A stretch of DNA of 64,000 nucleotides from Perna viridis (lineage: Eukaryota), in the NCBI GenBank assembly GCA_037379345.1, contig CM074517.1, forward strand, positions 15,376,001 to 15,440,000, read 5' to 3'. Made by a program: the position numbers and the translations under genes. Shown here piece by piece: positions 1 through 39,934 of this stretch. The notes beneath the pieces were generated by a model that made no database searches, was not told the origin of the DNA, and saw only the letters and a list, made by a program, of their open reading frames with translations. Positions within the stretch are counted from its first letter, which is position 1. Every line of letters begins with the position of its first letter.

Positions 1-25
1 ACATAACTACCTTTATTCTTAATGG

Positions 26-26
<1 letters not shown>

Positions 27-62
<36 letters not shown>

Positions 63-93
63 TATTACATCATTATTATTATTATTATCATTA
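27..93. repeat. (ATT)n microsatellite
   Basis: Run of att triplets with a few atc/cat variants. Confidence 0.95.
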
Positions 94-1929
94 TGGCTTT
101 ATTGCCATTATTCTTGATGTATTATTTGACTATAAACTTGTCCTTAGTATAGTTAATATATACGTACATTTATAATGTAAACCACTTTGCCAATCTTTAA
201 AGTACAAATAACTTATAGAAATTGTAATCGTTATTTTTAGCACATTCCTCCATATTATCAGGTAATTACGTTAATGTTATGGCTAACAAAGTTAAAAGGC
301 TACAAAGATACAGAAAAAATACCCCCTATCTTATAGTAACTCTTGAAATGTATTTTAGAGTCTGGCACAGTGTATATTTCAAACTAAGATTTGAGTTCGG
401 CGTTCAGAGAATACAATTTGTCAAACTGACGGCATTCACATTATCTTCAGATGTTTATGCAAGCTTAAAATCACCATCTACTTAGAAAAAAACATACTTT
501 AAAGATTACTATGTAACGTTATACTTCATAAATGACATATTTCCAGATTGAAAAAGAGTGCCTGCAACAGCGTGGTTCCATCTTTGATACAGGCTGTAGA
601 CTAGCATGATATCAAAACTAACGTTACGGGCACTAGCCGTGAAACGAGTTAAAGAAATACCAGCTTAGCAGATATCGCTGAGAATTTGGAATGTTTTTTC
701 TGTATACTTTTTAGAGTTTTGATTGTAACAAAAAGCATCAAGCAAAAACAAACTGAATCCATCTGAGTCTAGTAATGGCTTTACCATATAACATTTATCT
801 GAGGCAAAGACTTCGTTTTCTTTGATAATTTGGATTTTGTTTAGGGTAAAACCCTGTGACTATCTTTCCAGTATCGAAACTTAAATCTTTTAAATAAATG
901 AGAATTCCATTTGTTGTACATAATTATGATTGTTTTGATTTATGTTATAGAAACTGTTTTGGACAAATGTTTTCAGGTCCAACAAATATGTAAATACCTA
1001 ATGTTTCATTCCCAAAACGCATAAGCATTAGTTCTCTAGTTTCTACAAAAAACGAAATTTCAGATACAGAATGGTATTGCTTTTAGACATGTCTATTCAA
1101 TACGAAGCTTTGCCATCTTATTCTAAATTTGGTTATGAGAATTTGAGTTGACATTTCAACTTATTACAATCATATTTGTTTTTAAAGATCCGAACAGAGA
1201 CAACTTTCTTTGGTACCACTCATGCATAGAAAATGAAATTTTCGTCTCTCTTTGAATAAGCCCATGTTATGACACTTCTGGAACTTCCTGTAGATAAATT
1301 AATGAGGCACTGTACCGACACTCCGGTGTCAAATTCTTAGACAATGTCAAGATCAAAACGTCATAAATCTAGCTCATATGCCAATCTTACAAGACGAGAA
1401 TTTATGAAAACCGTAGAGAATTGATGAAATTCAGAAATTATACACGGCTTCGGTTATGATGTCACAAACTATTGTTCAGGACTGTCTTGTGTCTATAATA
1501 GCGAAGAACCACATTTTCCAAAAAGTGTCAAACATGATTTACGACTCTGTAACGATATTTCATCTAGACGAAAGAACCATCATTTTTAAAACCACACTGA
1601 AGGACCCATTGTCCATGAGAAAGCCTCTATAGTTCGTAAGTATTTATTGATTCAATTGAGACTTCAATTTTAGCATACATTACTAAATTTGTTTTATACC
1701 CAATTGGTTGATCATTTTGGTTCTTCACGTTTGGTCTTTGTTTGGCGTTAGTATGAAACCATCTACTGAAGAGAGTATCCGTAAATACATCTTCAACTAA
1801 GAAGTAGGCATTCCGACGGTACACATGACGGAAAAGTCTTGAGCAAAGTACCGTTTGGAACACCAAAATGATATCATGCGAAGATCAAATTGTACCACAA
1901 AAAGAAACTAAAATTTAGACACAGAGAAC

Positions 1930-2012
1930 GAAAAGCGCGGACCCGACTATACTTAGATAAACCAAGGTGCTCTTGAAGGGTGGGCAGTTCCGACTTTTTG
2001 CGCGACACTCGC
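1930..2012 (-). mobile_element. Diverged short copy of the Penelope-like 3' structured repeat
   Basis: The minus strand reads gcgagtgtcg...ggaactgcccacccttcaagagcaccttgg...gggtccgcgc. This resembles the core gcgggtg...gcttaccctaccggtgcacctgg at 30594-30645. Confidence 0.4.
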
Positions 2013-5000
2013 GATACTGCGAAATGTCGAATACTCGGCGTGACCTTAAGCTCTATATCTGAATTTACTTACTTTTCTCGTATATTATTATTAAAAAACT
2101 TACAATGCATGAATATGCACATATACCTAACTAAATGTAAGATTAGATGGTGAAATAAGAAGATAATTGACATGATGCTTACGTAGATGTATTATGAATC
2201 TATGTCATCTAATTATCAGTAGGTATTTTAGCCTACTTTTAAACCATCCTGTAGCCCGTTTTTGTTTTTTTGTGTTGATCCTAGCGTTTGATAGTCTTAA
2301 ATACCTATCTCTTGAACCTAATTCTTTTTTACATCCTTTACGTGCCTGTTGTCGAATCAAATTCAAAGCAATGTTGGTTTTAATTTACAGCAACCACAAT
2401 AAGTGTTGTGCTTACATCAAAGGATAGCGTCTAACCGCACCAGGGATGGGTTCTTCATAGCCATTTTACTAAAGTGCATAACGCTTTAGCATACATGTTG
2501 CAGTATGGCTTTTTCATTGAAAATTTCGATCGACATTGGAAAAATCCACCAATTTTGGTAATTGCTAGCGCTAATTTATATTTAATCACATTTTGTGCCG
2601 TTGTTTTGTCGTTCGACAAGAAAACGGTTTTATTGTTGCGAGTTTTGTTCTTCCTGAATGTCGACGTTTTGTCTTTTATCTCTTGAACAAAAGATAAAGT
2701 CACAAAGAAAATATGCAAATTAGACAGTAATACCTGTTAGCACCTTACAAAGGATGAAATTGATCGTAAGAGAGCCGAACGCTATGATCTAATTTAGACG
2801 TTTATGATATTGGTAATTTCCTCCTTTCAACCCACTGAACAAAAGTAATCGCACACGTATACCAATCTTTTGCATAAATCTCTTCGCATTTGACGGTTCA
2901 AAAACATAACTAAAATATTTTATTTGTAGATTCTTGTTTCCTTTGATACATCTTGGACCGTAGCTTTATATTTTTATGTAATATGTATATGGGTTTCATT
3001 TTATCATTTCAACAAAACCACTGATTCAACAGTCAAGGGAGGGGACATGTGGATGAAAGACAAATTTAGCGAAAATTGAACACATGCGAAGATTTCTAAA
3101 TATAGTTTGAGATGTGATAGTTATTGTCATTTTATTCGGGATTTTGTAAATTGGTTCAATGGTCAGTAAGTTACCGAAAATCTATTTAGACGATAGCGAA
3201 TTGATGGTCAGCTTTCAGTCTATAAACATAGCAAAGACCAAGTAACCTAGGTAATTGATGGTCAGCTTTCAGTCCTAACCTGACTGCATCAGGTCGAGCT
3301 TTGAATTAAAACAATTAAGATAGTGAATTGTTTTATTCAATGCTTTCCAAGGTGAAACTTCTTTTTATGTTGCTAAACGCATGCGTGGGTGAATCAAATA
3401 GGTAAATAATGAAACAAATGATATTTTAAACAAAGCAAATATCACTGAATTATTTAGAATCTATGCTTTTCAACATGCTAAACAAGCAGATAGCTCCGAT
3501 CTAATGGTGATTCATTGTTAAAATATCGATAAAAGATAAATTAACAAAAAAAAACAAAAAAACAAAAAAACAATGACATCTTCAACTATCACCTTAATCA
3601 GAAGGTCATCAATGAGCTGCATGGGAGAACATATAGCGGACTATTAAAGGCTGACACGACGGCGAACTCAGATGAATGAATGTCTCGATCTTGCGTTGTG
3701 ATATTCCATTTACTTTCCTGTTTTCACTGTTTAAGATTGTATCCGTTTCGTTTGAAAAATTGTGTTCATGATAAGAATTGATTCCCTTTGCTGTTTCATT
3801 TGAATAAACTCAGAAAGCATTGGCGTGTCTCTTTAAATTGGCGCGAGTGTTTACATGAGCATGCTTGGATACCATTGACTTGAAACTAGAGAAAGTCATT
3901 CATACATATCTTTAAACATGAAGGATCTGTCGTTGTACATGAATGTCTGAATATATTGTTATGCTGGAATTGTATTTACATTGAGTAATAAGAAACTGTT
4001 TGATAATAAGAGGGCATTGGAGCGAAGTGAGCCCACAATTTTTGACATTCTTTAGGCATACTTTTTCAAGAAAATTTTAGATTTGTTCCTCTAACGTTAT
4101 TATTAATCCTGTTATCTATTTTGTCTTATCTCCTTAACAACCGCTGCTATAAGTTAAAAATAATCCCAATTATACCATATTGTGCATTAAAATAAGTTTA
4201 ATAACTTTGGTATAGTGTAGCTTGGTGCACCTTTGCATTGCAGTGTTTATAATTAATTGTCTAAAATTTGTTTTATAAAAGTAGAAGGTCTGGATGAATG
4301 TCAGTATGTCACTATATATAAACCATAGATTTGAAATTCCCTGGTGGCTATAATCTAGACATTACATCGAATATGCAAGAGCACAGAAAACAACCCCCCC
4401 TTTTTCTGTCCCAGACTGATAATGTTTTTCTCTTCCACAAATCGCTTTTTTTCTTACATTGATAGAGAGGTCTACCAGTCTCCATTCGTATCTGTAATTT
4501 GATTAAATGTTGGTGTAATTTAGCAGATTAAATTTTTGCATGAACGATTTCTTTCATTGAAACATGCTATTGTGAATTCCTCCAGGTCCCATATTAGATA
4601 CATAGTGTGTTGATTTTGGAGAAATATAGCTTTTAGATAGTTTACATTGTGAGTGTCGACCGGACTATAAACTTGTCTTCAGCCACGAATGAATTAAATC
4701 TGAAACATTCTAGTGTAGTTTGATATGGCGATTTTAATTGTTCTCTAATTCTTCTGATTTACTTATTAAATAAAGTTTCCATAAAACACGGTCGACAGGT
4801 ATAGAACGATGTAGTAAAATGAAGCCATTTCCATGCGGGGATTTCTACTTTCCCTGGGATTCGTGCAGTTTACGTATAATCAGTGCTGATACTCTTCTGT
4901 ACTCTATTTAGACTTAACAAACACCATTACTTTTGATAAGTCACACCAGAAAGCTCGTGCATTATATAACACAGGATGATTTGACTTTGGTGTGCAAAGT

Positions 5001-6684
5001 GTTCATGCACCTTTGCTTTTCCTTCCGGATGGGGCTATATAGAGGCAGTAAGTGGTAATAGGCTGTAATATGACTTATAGGGAGGGATGGGATAGAACTG
5101 TCTAGGGAAAAGTTGTTAGGCATTAAAATGAAGTTGAACATATATGATGCAATGGATGCAAAATAAAGATCATGGTTAAGTCAAAATTTGTCCATTTATT
5201 GTGTAATTGAGTACAAACATGAAAATACAGAATCTATATGAATTTTGATGAAAATGCTCCTTTGATCTTCATTATTTTTTACTTATTTTCTCATTCGCCA
5301 ATGTATATTTCATGAATTTATTGTTACTTGTGAGAATTCTAAAGAGCCGCGCACAATATTGATGCAGAATGACAATCATTATGTTTGCCTATAGGAATTT
5401 TTTGTATAGAATGAAGACTGTGGTTGGTTTCGGATGGTCGATGAACCGTTTAGTACGTTTACTTAGTATTTTATCTATAATTTTGTTAAAGTACAATTTT
5501 AGATCATGAATAACAATTTCCAATACTAATCTTGTTATAAAGTATTGAACTAACTAGTGTAACTGCAGCTTAATGCTGTTTCACGATTATTTATATTTTC
5601 TATAACAACATGTACATGTAGTCCCAAAATGGTATTGAATTGTATTTGAGTATATTAAGTGATCAAAAAATGATTGTAGTACATGTACATGTACATTTAT
5701 ATAATTCATATATGTTTGTATAGATGTATATGTGTGTGTGTTTATGTTTATGACTAAAACACGTTTTGTTCTTAATCTAACAGTACATTCAGCAGGAGCC
5801 ATGTGTATGACATCTAGCTTATGCCTGTTTTTTTTTATTTTCTTTGAAGCAGGACTCCGTATTCTACAGTCAGTGGTTTTAATTTGCTAAAACTCAGTAA
5901 TTATAATGACGCATTGAACAATTATTTTTTATTCTTTAGGCTTTACCAAAGAAAATAGACGTTATATTAATTACTTTCAAAATTTCCAACATTTGGAGCG
6001 TTATTTCACTTTTTTGTCTTTTCATTTATTCAAATAATGCAGACTTCAAAAGAAAATTTTATTTTAGTACTTTATAGTAAAATCTGCGATTTTAATGCAA
6101 AAGTCGAATTTCATTTAGAATAGGACTTTTAGTCATAAAGGAAAAACTTTTAAATATTCCTTTGATCGGTGAAACAAGCTTTCGCCTGTCAACGGGGTTT
6201 ACCTTATCTTTCCTAACTCATCATTTAAAATTCTAAACTTATTTTCTAAAATTTAAATGAATTTCTATGTCGAAAGGTTTTAAACTCAAAACGGCTAAGT
6301 TTAATCGAAATCCAATTTTCTAATTTTAAAGAAACAAATCAAAGTTATCTAACAGTATCCTGTTATTATAGAAAGCGGTCGATTTTGATGTGGAAATTTG
6401 ATTTAAATACTGGGCTCCGTTTTGGTCCAAGTAGTCTATGTTTACGTGGTCCGTTATATAATCTGGACTTACGCCCTAAAAGACACTTGAAAAGGTATGA
6501 ATGAAATAGTTCAGGTCGTTTGTCAGAGCTAAGATAATTTATGTGAAAAATATGAGAGGGTCAACAATTGATCGGAATTTTATTGCTTTAAATTTAAACA
6601 ACAATACACCGACACTCTGTTTCTAGTATGTTTTTATTTCTATTTTTCAGATCATCAATTTCAACAGAGTAGAAAGCTGACAAT

Positions 6685-6712
6685 TGATTGGTCAGATTAG
6701 ATGTCACATGAC
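6685..6712 (+). promoter_or_regulatory. Hox3 CCAAT-box (reverse) plus E-box module
   Basis: TGATTGG (6685-6691) followed by GTCACATGAC (6703-6712). The same module lies ahead of Hox2. It sits just downstream of a strong polypyrimidine acceptor (tttttatttctatttttcag, ending 6650). Confidence 0.7.
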
Positions 6713-6797
6713 TCATCAAACAGATGATCGTAGAAATGATTTGTGGTATCATAACATGTCGGTTAGAGGCAATGCAATAAATTTTTCAAACACCGAG

Positions 6798-7224
6798 ATG
6801 CACAAAACTGCTTATTATAATCCTTCGCAAAATTTTCCTCATTATTTTCCTGGGGAAAATGGATATGGATATGAACCACCATTTGGACATACAGCTCCTT
6901 CCCCGACCGGTGGGGAATACTATCCACCCGGATCATGTGCAATTCAGAATGACTTTGTCACAGGAGGATCGGATTATAAAACCCCACAGTGCAATGAGGA
7001 ATATGGAAATTATTACTACCAAAATCAAAATATTCCACCCGGAAATTCGCTAACGAACCATTCCTCTTCAAAGAGTAGTAAAATATTTCCATGGATGACT
7101 GAAAGTCGACAAAATTCTAAGCAAAAGCAGAACCACCAGCAACAAGCGTCACAACAGCAGCCGACACCTTCACAACCCGCTCAAACCCAGCAGACGACTA
7201 CTTCGAACTCGCAGACAATGTCAG
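6798..7224 (+). CDS. Hox3: Hox3 coding exon 1 (N-terminus and hexapeptide)
   Basis: Starts MHKTAYY, matching the Hox3-type MQKxxYY N-terminus. Contains KIFPWMTESRQNSKQK, the Hox3 hexapeptide context. Ends at the phase-1 donor G|GTAAGT (7224/7225). In-frame upstream ATGs at 6708 and 6756 could extend the N-terminus. Confidence 0.92.
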
Positions 7225-9013
7225 GTAAGTGTTTTATTTGATTACGGTGATAAATGACCCATCAAACATAAAAAAAGATCCGCGTCAAATTTGTAATGAT
7301 GTGTGCAGTTTCGAATAAAACACTCACCAATTTACGTTTATTTGTTAAAAGACATAAAGCAGTGCTAATCAATCGAGGGATCATTAATTTACGATGCTTG
7401 TGGGATTTAAAGTAGGGTGATTTTTGCCTGCTTTTATGACTTCATGATGGGATAATTAAATGTTATCCCTTTTTCTAATTTACGAAAGGTGAGACTATAA
7501 TTTAATAAGCAATAAGAATGTCTAAAGACTTTTTACATTCTAGTTTGCACTTTTAAGAGATAAATGTTTTGATTTGTTGAAGCAAAAGGTACAAAACCTA
7601 AACATATATTTACACGTTGTTTAGTTTTTTTTCATGTTTTGTTTTTACAAATACGTACAACACACATTTCTATTTGTTTTAAATTCACAAATATTGCGAT
7701 GACCATTTCATCTTTTTTCTTCGAATTTTCTGATTATTGTTTCATTTTAAAATACAGTAAGTGTTTTTTTTAAGATGAAAAATAATTATAATAATGTCCT
7801 TGTAATTATAGGAATAAATTCTTTAAAATGCAAGATTTTTTCCGTTCGGTTTTAATATAAAAAATTGAATTTTTTTAAAATTACCGACGCAGGTTTTGCA
7901 TACTACATGTTTTGATAATTATTATTACCGGTTGATAACTACGATTGACTTACAAAATGTTAAAAAAAATGCGTTTGAAAATTTGAATGATGTGCTCCAT
8001 ATTTTCCTCAATATAAAAGAAATTGAGTGTGAATAATCTACTATCTTGTTATTAAGAAAACGTTCTAATTTTGACAACCATGAAGTTTTTACATTAAATA
8101 ATATATATTTATTACATGTTATAATTGATCAGAAGTTTTGCAATGTATTTCTACTCAATCAGACATTATACATTTAACTAAAAATACATTTCTGTTTTTT
8201 AAATTCGCGATGGCTTCTGATTTAAAAAGCAGTTTCTATGCAACAAACATAAAAATTGAATAATTTAGATTTTTTTATCAGTTTTAACAGTTAGAATTAA
8301 TTTTCTGAATATTCGATATTTTTTTTAATGTTTAATTATTCAATTTAAAAAAAAATATTCAGTTGGTAATATTGTCTTGTCTAAAAAACCTTCTTTACAC
8401 TTGTTGCAAATTCAGTTACGTCGCTTTGAATGAATAGCATTCTTCGTTTTCTATCTATTTAACATCTGTGAATACATCAAAAGAGGAGTAAACATTTCTC
8501 TCCGATAATAATCTAAAGAAAACTTGTATGATTTTTTTTTCATTTTAATAATTTTTCCATAATATCAAATTCCTAAGAAATTAGCTTTTTGAAGTAATCG
8601 GTTAGTTTTTCTACTGCTAATATTATGAAGTTTATAATTCTAATGATTCGTGAAGTGTGATACATTTTCAAACGATCTGAGATATAGAAATATTATTTGT
8701 ATATTGTTTTTTTTTAATTGACACCTGATATTTATTCTGTTGTCATGACTATAAATACCATTGGAATGAATATAATTTTAACTGATTTTAAACATATTTT
8801 TATGAGCAAAGTAATCGGTAGAAATAACTATGATTTAATTTGACAAAAATCACGTGAACAAAAGCTAAAAGCACACATCCACTGAGAAACATTGAAAAAA
8901 ATTATTTATTTGAATAACGCAATTAAGCAAATATAGATATGTACGAACATATAAAAAATAATGTAGTTTTCTTTTTGCTTTCTTAAACACATTTTTGTTA
9001 TTTCTTTTCACAG
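7225..9013 (+). other. Hox3: Hox3 intron between hexapeptide and homeobox (1789 bp)
   Basis: GTAAGT...tttcttttcacag. Joining G+AA gives Glu and restores the frame into PTKRARTAY. Confidence 0.92.
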
Positions 9014-9774
9014 AACCAACAAAACGTGCTAGAACAGCGTATACAAGCGCACAACTTGTGGAACTGGAAAAAGAATTTCATTTCAATCGTTACTTGTGCC
9101 GTCCACGTAGAATAGAAATGGCTGCCTTACTGAATTTAACAGAGAGACAGATTAAAATTTGGTTTCAAAATCGAAGGATGAAATTTAAGAAGGAACAAAG
9201 ACATAAAGGGTCAGATAAGGGAGGAAAGGACGGAAATATGTCCGGATCTGAGAGTGATAGCCAAGGATCTATGGGTCCGGATGGGTTGGGCAGTGATTGT
9301 GGTGGAAAAATGACACCGGACAGCATAACGCACAGCTCAGGACCGCAAATGACGAGCTTGACTGGCACTCAACAGCGACCTAACGAGAGGTCACCACAAG
9401 GACCTAGTCCTCAGATGACCGTAGATCACAGTGTCATGAGAGGCCATTTTAATGATAATGGTCATCCATATCAACAGTATGGTCAATCTCATTCACCGGG
9501 GATGAAGCCATCGATGTCGCCTGGAATTAATTCGAATTCATCTATGACGGCCTCACATCCGCCACAAATGTACATGACAATGGGGTCACAACATCCAAAT
9601 CACGGAGGAGGGTACAATGGTCATTATATGAACAATGGACAATTATACCCTGACATGCAGGGGATGGAAGATCCTTACGGGCAGATGTATTCGTCTCAGG
9701 TTCCGTGTTCTAACAATGTAAACGCCTATTCTCAGGGACAGTATGAATATGTACCAAAATTAACTCATCTTTAG
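9014..9774 (+). CDS. Hox3: Hox3 coding exon 2 (homeodomain and C-terminus)
   Basis: [57 protein letters not shown] is a paralogy-group-3 homeodomain. The protein ends in the conserved Hox3 C-terminal PKLTHL, with stop TAG at 9772-9774. Confidence 0.97.
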
Positions 9775-39459: not shown

Positions 39460-39485
39460 TGATTGGTTGTTACGGTCACATGACC
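39460..39485 (+). promoter_or_regulatory. Hox2 CCAAT-box (reverse) plus E-box module
   Basis: TGATTGG (39460-39466), a 10-bp spacer to CACATG, within GGTCACATGACC (39474-39485). It lies about 155 bp upstream of the ATG. Confidence 0.75.
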
Positions 39486-39639
39486 TAAACAGCAGTGGTT
39501 ATCATTCGGTTACGTCCATCTCGTGTATACTTTTTAATGCATAGTTGGTAAAGTGTCACCTGGAAAGAATATAAGTAAAGACATGTGATATTATTACACA
39601 CATTTTTTCAGTGCAAATCTGTTCCTTGACAAATTTCAA

Positions 39640-39934
39640 ATGACGATGGACGAGGGGCGAGAGTCTGGCTTTATCAACAGCCAACCGAGTATAGCAGAAT
39701 TTATGACTTCGGTGCCACTTATCAATGAGAATTTACAAGCACCATCAATCATTGCGAGCGACGGCATGCGATCTTACTGCCAATCTTTCTCTGCCTCACA
39801 GACACCGACCCAGGACATCGGGGGCGACCCTGGGGCAAGGGATAACGGACTAGGACTCAAGTTCCCGGATTATGCTTGGATGAAAGAGAAGAAACCAGTC
39901 CGGAAAGGAGTCACGCCTGACCAGAACGAGCTAG
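39640..39934 (+). CDS. Hox2: Hox2/proboscipedia coding exon 1
   Basis: RESGFINSQPSIAEF is the diagnostic Hox2/pb N-terminal motif. Hexapeptide context is FPDYAWMKEKK. Phase-1 donor G|GTATTG at 39934/39935. Confidence 0.92.

Follow-up and report, generated by a model that had tools for sequence, protein, structure and literature searches.

A CCAAT box followed closely by an E-box is the motif on which the dispute over vertebrate Hox "IRES" elements hinged, and the presence of both boxes shortly before the Hox3 coding sequence of the mussel Perna viridis raises the question of whether such a cassette acts as promoter DNA, as a translational signal within the mRNA leader, or as both. The window analysed here, by which is meant the whole stretch of 64,000 nt (G000:C7:15376001-15440000; CM074517.1), contains this leader, for which a sequence-only reading had proposed a dual-use element, serving as a proximal promoter for a short mRNA and as a translational control leader in long spliced mRNAs. 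The cassette is real and conserved, and judged from its sequence resembles the CAAT/E-box promoter of vertebrate Hoxa genes, here in a mollusc Hox cluster. The account that we favour, and regard as rather probable when taken as a whole, is that an NF-Y/bHLH proximal promoter precedes Hox3 and five other Hox genes, and that in Hox3 the same stretch is also exonic, with the frame of its E-box ATG kept by selection.

Within 14.88-15.50 Mb of C7, eight homeoboxes lie in tandem, all of them on the + strand, and by their order and homeodomain signatures we take them to be Hox1, 2, 3, 4, 5, Lox5, Antp and a Lox4/Lox2-type gene. Hox3 is the only one named by sequence comparison, its exon 1 being 83% identical to a Mytilus protein of the cluster named Hox-D3-like/HOX_3. 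"The eight Hox genes examined" refers to Hox1 through the Lox4/Lox2-type gene, the posterior Hox genes being left out. The features of the window that concern this analysis are the following:

6626-6650, + strand: AG preceded by a pyrimidine-rich tract, probable 3' splice acceptor serving one or more non-coding exons upstream, based on sequence, contig ends and relatives
6651-7224, + strand: Hox3 first coding exon, long form (contigs reach 6650, 6651, 6695 and 6853)
6678-6680, + strand: in-frame TGA, closing the Hox3 frame upstream of ATT 6687
6685-6691, - strand: CCAAT box (TGATTGG on the + strand), predicted NF-Y site, containing ATT 6687
6701-6727, + strand: out-of-frame uORF MSHDSSNR (TGA 6725-6727), poor context, lineage-restricted
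6703-6712, no strand assigned: E-box GTCACATGAC, predicted to bind bHLH factors of the USF/TFE/MAX type; the spacer to the CCAAT box is 13 bp
6708-6755, + strand: in-frame extension of 16 codons opening with the E-box ATG, which stands in a poor context (CAC ATG A)
6736-6780, + strand: out-of-frame uATG with a 14-codon uORF, at -20 from the MS start, overlapping ATG 6756
6756-6797, + strand: N-terminus conserved among protostome Hox3 proteins (MS..NEINF-type peptide), where translation of long mRNAs probably starts for the most part
6798-6800, + strand: MHK start (MHKTAYY), matching vertebrate MQK; predicted start for any transcript beginning downstream of 6756
7225-9013, + strand: Hox3 intron, 1789 nt, GT..AG, skipped in contigs of all four runs
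9014-9774, + strand: coding part of Hox3 exon 2 (homeodomain, C-terminal end PKLTHL)
39460-39484, + strand: second cassette, before Hox2, its ATG in a different frame that meets a stop after 2 codons

The positions on which the sequence-only reading had built are all correct (acceptor AG at 6649-6650, TGATTGG at 6685-6691, GTCACATGAC at 6703-6712, ATG at 6708), and ATT 6687 and ATG 6708 do lie 21 nt apart and in frame with ATG 6798, adding 30 aa. The leader also contains signals that had gone unmentioned, namely the in-frame ATG 6756, the out-of-frame ATGs 6724, 6736 and 6772, and the in-frame TGA 6678. Its ATGs number seven in total (6701, 6708, 6724, 6736, 6756, 6772 and 6798), three of them in frame, and the uATGs 6736 and 6724 have one common frame. 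Those at 6701, 6708 and 6724 stand in poor contexts, with a pyrimidine at -3 and no G at +4 (ATG 6701 has T at both positions, a suboptimal context); ATG 6736 has G at -3, and ATG 6756 has A at -3 (AAC ATG), the best context of the leader. Overlapping the E-box on its 3' side is TGACTCA (6709-6715), which we take to be an AP-1-like motif. No stable RNA structure was found in the Hox3 leader, which yielded a z-score of -0.02, with 91 of 200 shuffles folding as well; a structured leader of the Hox IRES/TIE type is ruled out on these grounds.

Within the window, the pattern TGATTGG-N8-16-CACRTGAC is matched twice, against a mean of 0.00 and a largest count of 0 in 100 shuffles. The gene following the second match, at 39460-39484, is presumably Hox2, by order and homeodomain signature. 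The pattern ATTGG-N9-14-CACRTG has seven + strand matches in 287,701 bases of cluster DNA, and six of the seven directly precede a Hox start codon. Both boxes are found before six of the eight Hox genes examined, 111-178 nt from the start codon, with the ATT at -146 (Hox1), -178 (Hox2), -111 from MHK (Hox3), -120 (Hox4), -155 (Hox5) and -153 (Lox5). The remaining two genes carry ATTGG without an E-box, at -149 and -156; ATTGG is present before the start codon in all eight, in the range of -111 to -178. The E-box reads CACGTG in three of the six cassette-bearing genes, and in Hox3 its core is the non-canonical CACATG, with USF-type flanks present in GTCACATGAC. The spacer between the boxes measures 13 bp in Hox3, 12 in a clam Hox3 (see below), 10-11 in four paralogues and 14 in one, and the distance from ATT to RTG is 19, 18, 21, 19, 18 and 22 nt in Hox1, 2, 3, 4, 5 and Lox5, respectively. 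Only in Hox3 is the E-box RTG in frame and open to the coding sequence, this being the case in none of the five cassette-bearing paralogues. That most Hox genes in a mollusc are preceded by the cassette, its spacing conserved but not its frame, favours the promoter reading, and on this sequence evidence the cassette is very likely a proximal promoter.

Additional observations concern the surroundings of individual copies. The Hox2 leader (39460-39640) includes a possible 64-nt intron, from GT 39548 to AG 39611, between cassette and start codon. In Hox1 (L055, about 2530-2580 and 2810-2831), upstream of the cassette at -146, a short segment lies between an acceptor-like TTTTCAG and a GTAAGT donor, a possible non-coding micro-exon. 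E-boxes flank the CCAAT box of Lox5 on both sides (-177 and -134; L041, about 3094-3140), and in Hox5 (L040, about 2120-2127) TGACTCA overlaps the E-box on its 5' side, as opposed to the 3' side in Hox3. A candidate, on sequence, for a distal Hox3 promoter lies at L047:1510-1680 (G000:C7:15367510-15367680), some 15 kb before the Hox3 acceptor, where the + strand carries a GTCACGTG E-box together with three ATTGG boxes.

The geometry of the two boxes was also tallied throughout the genome. A stricter form of the cassette pattern yields 80 matches, against 8 for a reversed control, and the spacer is 9-12 in 54 of the 80, peaking at 10-12. These and the following tallies were compiled manually, with some repeat copies among them. 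A flipped E-box gives 59 matches against 9 in the control, 41 of the 59 at a spacer of 9-12; the spacing peak, being kept when the E-box is flipped, is thus independent of the ATG. The ATT-to-RTG distance modulo 3 is flat (31/21/28 of 80, p 0.34). A peak that appears whichever way the E-box faces, without frame bias, is what one expects of a geometry set by bound proteins, and in sequence terms fits the NF-Y/USF distance, which in human is 10-12 bp (PMC4889920, in its accessible part). Matches to the NF-YA family occur at two loci (G000:C3:51317004-51321270 and C8:11893112-11895693). The opposite geometry does not share the spacing peak (a spacer of 9-12 in 25 among the 100 matches listed of 134), but it is enriched as well (134 matches against 16 in the control), which indicates that part of the cassette enrichment reflects word bias or repeats. 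Around the first 30 of the 80 cassettes, no promoter-like excess of GC (p 0.29), CpG (p 0.81) or CCAAT (p 0.41) was detected; E-boxes are in excess there (p 0.016), partly through one E-box-rich locus.

A metagenome scan for related Hox3 DNA matched 75 stretches, of which four were confirmed (L031 to L034). The clam-like L031, nearest to heteroconch Hox3, has both boxes, with a CACGTG E-box and a spacer of 12; its ATT is out of frame, 20 nt from a GTG that is itself in frame and open for 15 codons, in poor context. This locus was retrieved by its hexapeptide and not by its E-box frame, and is the only one free of ascertainment. In the annelid-like L033 (best match 36% to Chaetopterus Hox3) the CCAAT box is kept and the E-box is degenerate; L032, a fish Hox3, has CCAAT on the opposite strand and a frame closed after 16 codons, and L034, a weak match, has neither box. 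The proposed conservation in another lophotrochozoan consequently holds for both boxes in clam and for the CCAAT box alone in the annelid-like locus. The expectation that the ATT-to-ATG spacing would remain a multiple of 3 fails, given the values of 18, 18, 19, 19, 21 and 22 nt in the six paralogues, 20 in clam, and the flat genome-wide distribution. The uORF at 6701, described as overlapping the E-box, is present and out of frame here, and its ATG is absent in L031 and L033. What survives of the dual-use element is a narrower form, in which neither an ATT-ATG frame rule nor the 6701 uORF is conserved and the E-box start keeps its frame in bivalve Hox3; as for its promoter half, serving a short mRNA, the six of eight Hox genes, the NF-Y/USF-type spacing and a mouse Hoxa3 precedent argue well in its favour, by inference from sequence and analysis.

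Whether the cassette is also carried in mRNA was addressed with contigs from four of 24 runs listed, belonging to four studies, whose RNA nature is guessed; such contigs are unable to show a transcription start, and the absence of cover over most of 1-6650 was not counted as evidence. Their 5' ends fall at 6651 (X2, from letter 1 of the record), 6650 (X1, with 5 of 151 letters unplaced), 6695 (X6) and 6853 (X10). Those of three of the four runs, with the same guess as to their nature, cover ATG 6708, and those of two end at the acceptor, at 6650/6651; the coincidence of contig ends from two studies with the predicted acceptor hints only weakly at splicing there, and no splice joint into 6651 was seen in the contigs of the four runs. 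The acceptor tract includes 16 pyrimidines in 20 positions, and the + strand of the window holds nine stronger acceptor-like sites; the site being only moderately distinctive by sequence, its support comes from the RNA-like contigs and from relatives. An acceptor-like tract with AG is present in three of the four related loci, at -101 in L031, at -106 in L033 and before the boxes in L032, and the position in Perna viridis, counted like those of L031 and L033 from the MS start, is -105. The contig ends and the acceptor-like sites in relatives together suggest that the cassette is probably exonic in long mRNAs, and we are fairly confident that some mRNA includes it; the earlier placement of the cassette within a spliced exon finds weak to moderate backing in these ends and sites. 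In Mytilus, Ruditapes, Haliotis, Patella and Lineus, one and the same Hox3 protein is filed under several RefSeq accessions, which is compatible with alternative leaders. A blastn comparison of L031-L034 with the window and 80 kb upstream returned homeobox matches only, and did not locate the upstream exon. Since TGA 6678 closes the frame, no upstream exon can read into the Hox3 coding sequence in Perna viridis, and an upstream coding exon is ruled out both here and in clam, where the in-frame stop is at L031:1586.

An exon-1 alignment of 14 chosen protostome Hox3 proteins (from bivalves, gastropods, an annelid, a nemertean, a brachiopod, a phoronid, a priapulid and an onychophoran) shows the Met at 6756 (M17) and the Met at 6798 (M31) to be invariant in 14 of 14, with the NEINF-type peptide between them; the deeply conserved Hox3 N-terminus can thus be said to begin at 6756. 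An N-terminal peptide of 14-17 residues before MQK/MHK is kept from molluscs to priapulids and onychophorans, and a description of it was not found in the literature searched, in which subscription journals are thinly covered. Upstream of 6756, 7 of 15 bivalve lineages have the E-box codon in the Hox3 frame, with no stop before the MS start, a count subject to ascertainment, in that protein records reveal the extension only when it is in frame, and made over lineages that share ancestry. The extension measures 16 codons in mytilids, 18 in scallops, 15 in Nucula, 16 each in Solemya, P0318 and P0319, and 15 in clam (GTG), and hence 15-18 overall; the annotated proteins of Pinctada, P0002, venerids, P0044, Mactra, Potamilus and P0314 begin further downstream and reveal nothing about the frame. 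In oyster Hox3 (P0032, P0149, P0150, P0320), MTHR stands directly before the NEINF peptide, like the scallop E-box start; it could be an in-frame deletion or an altered MS start, and if it is the E-box ATG, the conserved peptide could be made from that start alone. As background, 8 of 30 genome-wide cassettes are open for 15 codons in any frame, which sets the chance level for being both in frame and open at about 9%; the corresponding binomial figure for 7 of 15 lineages, 1.5e-4, is not relied upon, because the lineages are related and ascertained. That clam has GTG in poor context, a weak start, counts against selection on the frame, and whether the E-box frame is under selection appears to us evenly balanced. 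A further ATG, out of frame, is located at -17 in L031 and L033 and at -20 here (6736), in the +1 frame in all three lophotrochozoan-type DNA loci; its uORF varies in length (14, 2 and 6 codons), and bivalve peptides have N/D-D/E-L at the corresponding position, compatible with that ATG. It is a candidate conserved uAUG, noticed post hoc, and could equally be a DNA-binding site.

These data can be read in other ways, of which the simplest is that the cassette matters as promoter DNA only, and that the open E-box frame is an accident inherited within a slowly changing stretch of 45-54 nt. The conserved extension residues can indeed be read as DNA motifs (the E-box flank, the ATGA at -17/-20, the AAC before the start), clam has GTG, the extension is ascertained through protein records, and among the proteins compared no non-bivalve one begins with such an extension. 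Nevertheless, the extension changes length by whole codons, at three separate places, the DNA between E-box and start is divergent between Perna viridis and clam and yet open in both, and the frame is kept in none of the five paralogues, and we consider this promoter-only reading rather unlikely. Selection on the frame could also be imagined as a way of avoiding a uORF, a motive weakened by the three other out-of-frame ATGs tolerated in the leader.

Should every Hox3 mRNA be spliced from upstream promoters, there would be no local start, the cassette would be an exonic enhancer or a relic, and ATG 6708 would be a regular first start. Gene models of Mytilus (a 419-aa RefSeq protein), scallop, Nucula and Solemya begin at the E-box ATG, as this would have it, although gene prediction picks the earliest in-frame ATG as a matter of routine; contigs extend without a gap from 6651 (X2) or 6695 (X6) across the coding sequence, and the oyster MTHR adjoins the NEINF peptide directly. 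Against this stand the poor context of ATG 6708, the clam GTG and the five paralogues that carry the cassette at promoter distance, and we hold such a scheme to be improbable. The idea that ATT 6687 and ATG 6708 form a paired, frame-locked translation signal regulated by the 6701 uORF is largely refuted outside mytilids and has very little left to commend it. It holds in the Perna viridis genome, and the 7-codon ATT-ATG spacing recurs in a related mytilid read-through (P0033); however, neither L031 nor L033 has the ATT in frame, the distances of 18-22 nt in paralogues and 20 in clam, as well as the flat genome-wide modulo 3 (p 0.34), follow no such rule, L031 and L033 are without a 6701-type ATG, the leader is unstructured (z -0.02), and no group 3 gene figures among the 13 Hox genes with conserved uORFs in the part of PMC8892498 available.

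The favoured account, a proximal promoter that in Hox3 is also exonic, would operate as follows. NF-Y and a USF-type dimer would bind the cassette, and transcription of a short mRNA would begin 40-60 nt further on, at about 6745-6775 if Hoxa9 is a guide; this mRNA would lack the cassette and be translated from 6756, or from 6798 if capped beyond 6756. Longer mRNAs, at which the contigs hint, would have their Hox3 exon begin at 6651 and so contain the cassette in RNA form, with scanning ribosomes mostly leaking past the ATGs at 6701, 6708 and 6724, partly diverted at 6736, and mainly starting at 6756. The E-box ATG could not be lost without harm to the protein-binding site, and by being in frame and stop-free it would turn a would-be inhibitory uORF into a minor Hox3 form, 16 residues longer. 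An E-box start would yield a longer but intact Hox3, which would account for Hox3 alone, of the six cassette-bearing genes, keeping the frame; the ATT and the 6701 uORF may be by-products of the DNA motif. A broader and tentative proposal, possible though on the doubtful side, is that the cassette is the promoter that Hox genes had in the bilaterian ancestor, passed on in every tandem duplication that enlarged the cluster and double-coded in bivalve Hox3, where promoter choice would set the N-terminus: distal promoters would give E-box-codon or NEINF-bearing forms, tuned by the conserved uAUG, and the short mRNA the MHK form. If the promoter reading is true, the cassette would date back to the bilaterian ancestor and offer a common handle on spiralian Hox transcription; the Hox3 case would indicate that one stretch may act as promoter DNA and as a coding-compatible exon, that promoter choice may decide whether the N-terminal peptide conserved in protostome Hox3 is present, and that the 419-aa mussel Hox3 gene models may begin at a minor site.

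Neither the cassette in invertebrate Hox genes nor a paired ATT/ATG Hox start signal was found in the literature searched, with the same thin coverage of subscription journals, and the nearest known systems are vertebrate ones. Vertebrate Hox uORFs (PMC8892498, PMC8172242, each in its accessible part) likewise involve poor-context AUGs in the leader before the main start, among them the described Hoxa3 TIE uORF (PMC8172242); they differ in being conserved, whereas the mussel 6701 uORF is not, the conserved candidate here being ATG 6736. HOXD3 is listed with a conserved poor-context start (PMC8892498, Dataset S1, available portion), and its 16-aa extension before MQK is an analogue of the tandem in-frame starts; a text search of the SI Appendix of the same work, as far as it was accessible, gave no Hox3 rows in its Hox TSS/uORF tables. 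The DECA-CCAAT element (PBX/PREP, NF-Y and Sp2; bioRxiv 10.64898/2026.02.16.706105, in the part available) also pairs a CCAAT box with another motif, some 11 bp away, and was ruled out by eye, there being no GAnnGAC at that position on the CCAAT strand. Closer in design is the NF-Y/E-box (USF, MAX) composite element, as far as the accessible part of PMC4889920 describes it: the genome-wide mussel peak at 10 and 12 bp between ATTGG and CAC would be alike if the distance is counted there between the same points, as would five of seven Hox copies at 10-12 bp (Hox1, 2, 4 and 5 of the mussel itself and clam Hox3), and the differences are that the Hox3 copy, at 13 bp, lies one base beyond the peak and that the mollusc sites are predicted. 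The closest parallel is found in mouse Hoxa3, a5, a7, a9 and a11, whose CAAT box and E-box (USF1/2) promoters were once read as IRESes; according to the accessible part of the same report, mutating the E-box makes the Hoxa3 promoter less active, and some 60 nt separate the Hoxa9 CAAT/E-box from the TSS that follows it (PMC9456764). Judged against that part, the mouse promoters are demonstrated in vertebrates, while the mussel cassette is known from sequence; the mussel Hox3 E-box, CACATG, differs from the mouse Hoxa system, as does the fish Hox3 (L032) with its CCAAT on the opposite strand, and the mussel cassette includes groups 1 and 2, for which mouse HoxA is without such activity. In both animals, the two boxes stand shortly before the Hox coding sequence, are common to several paralogues and overlap annotated long leaders.
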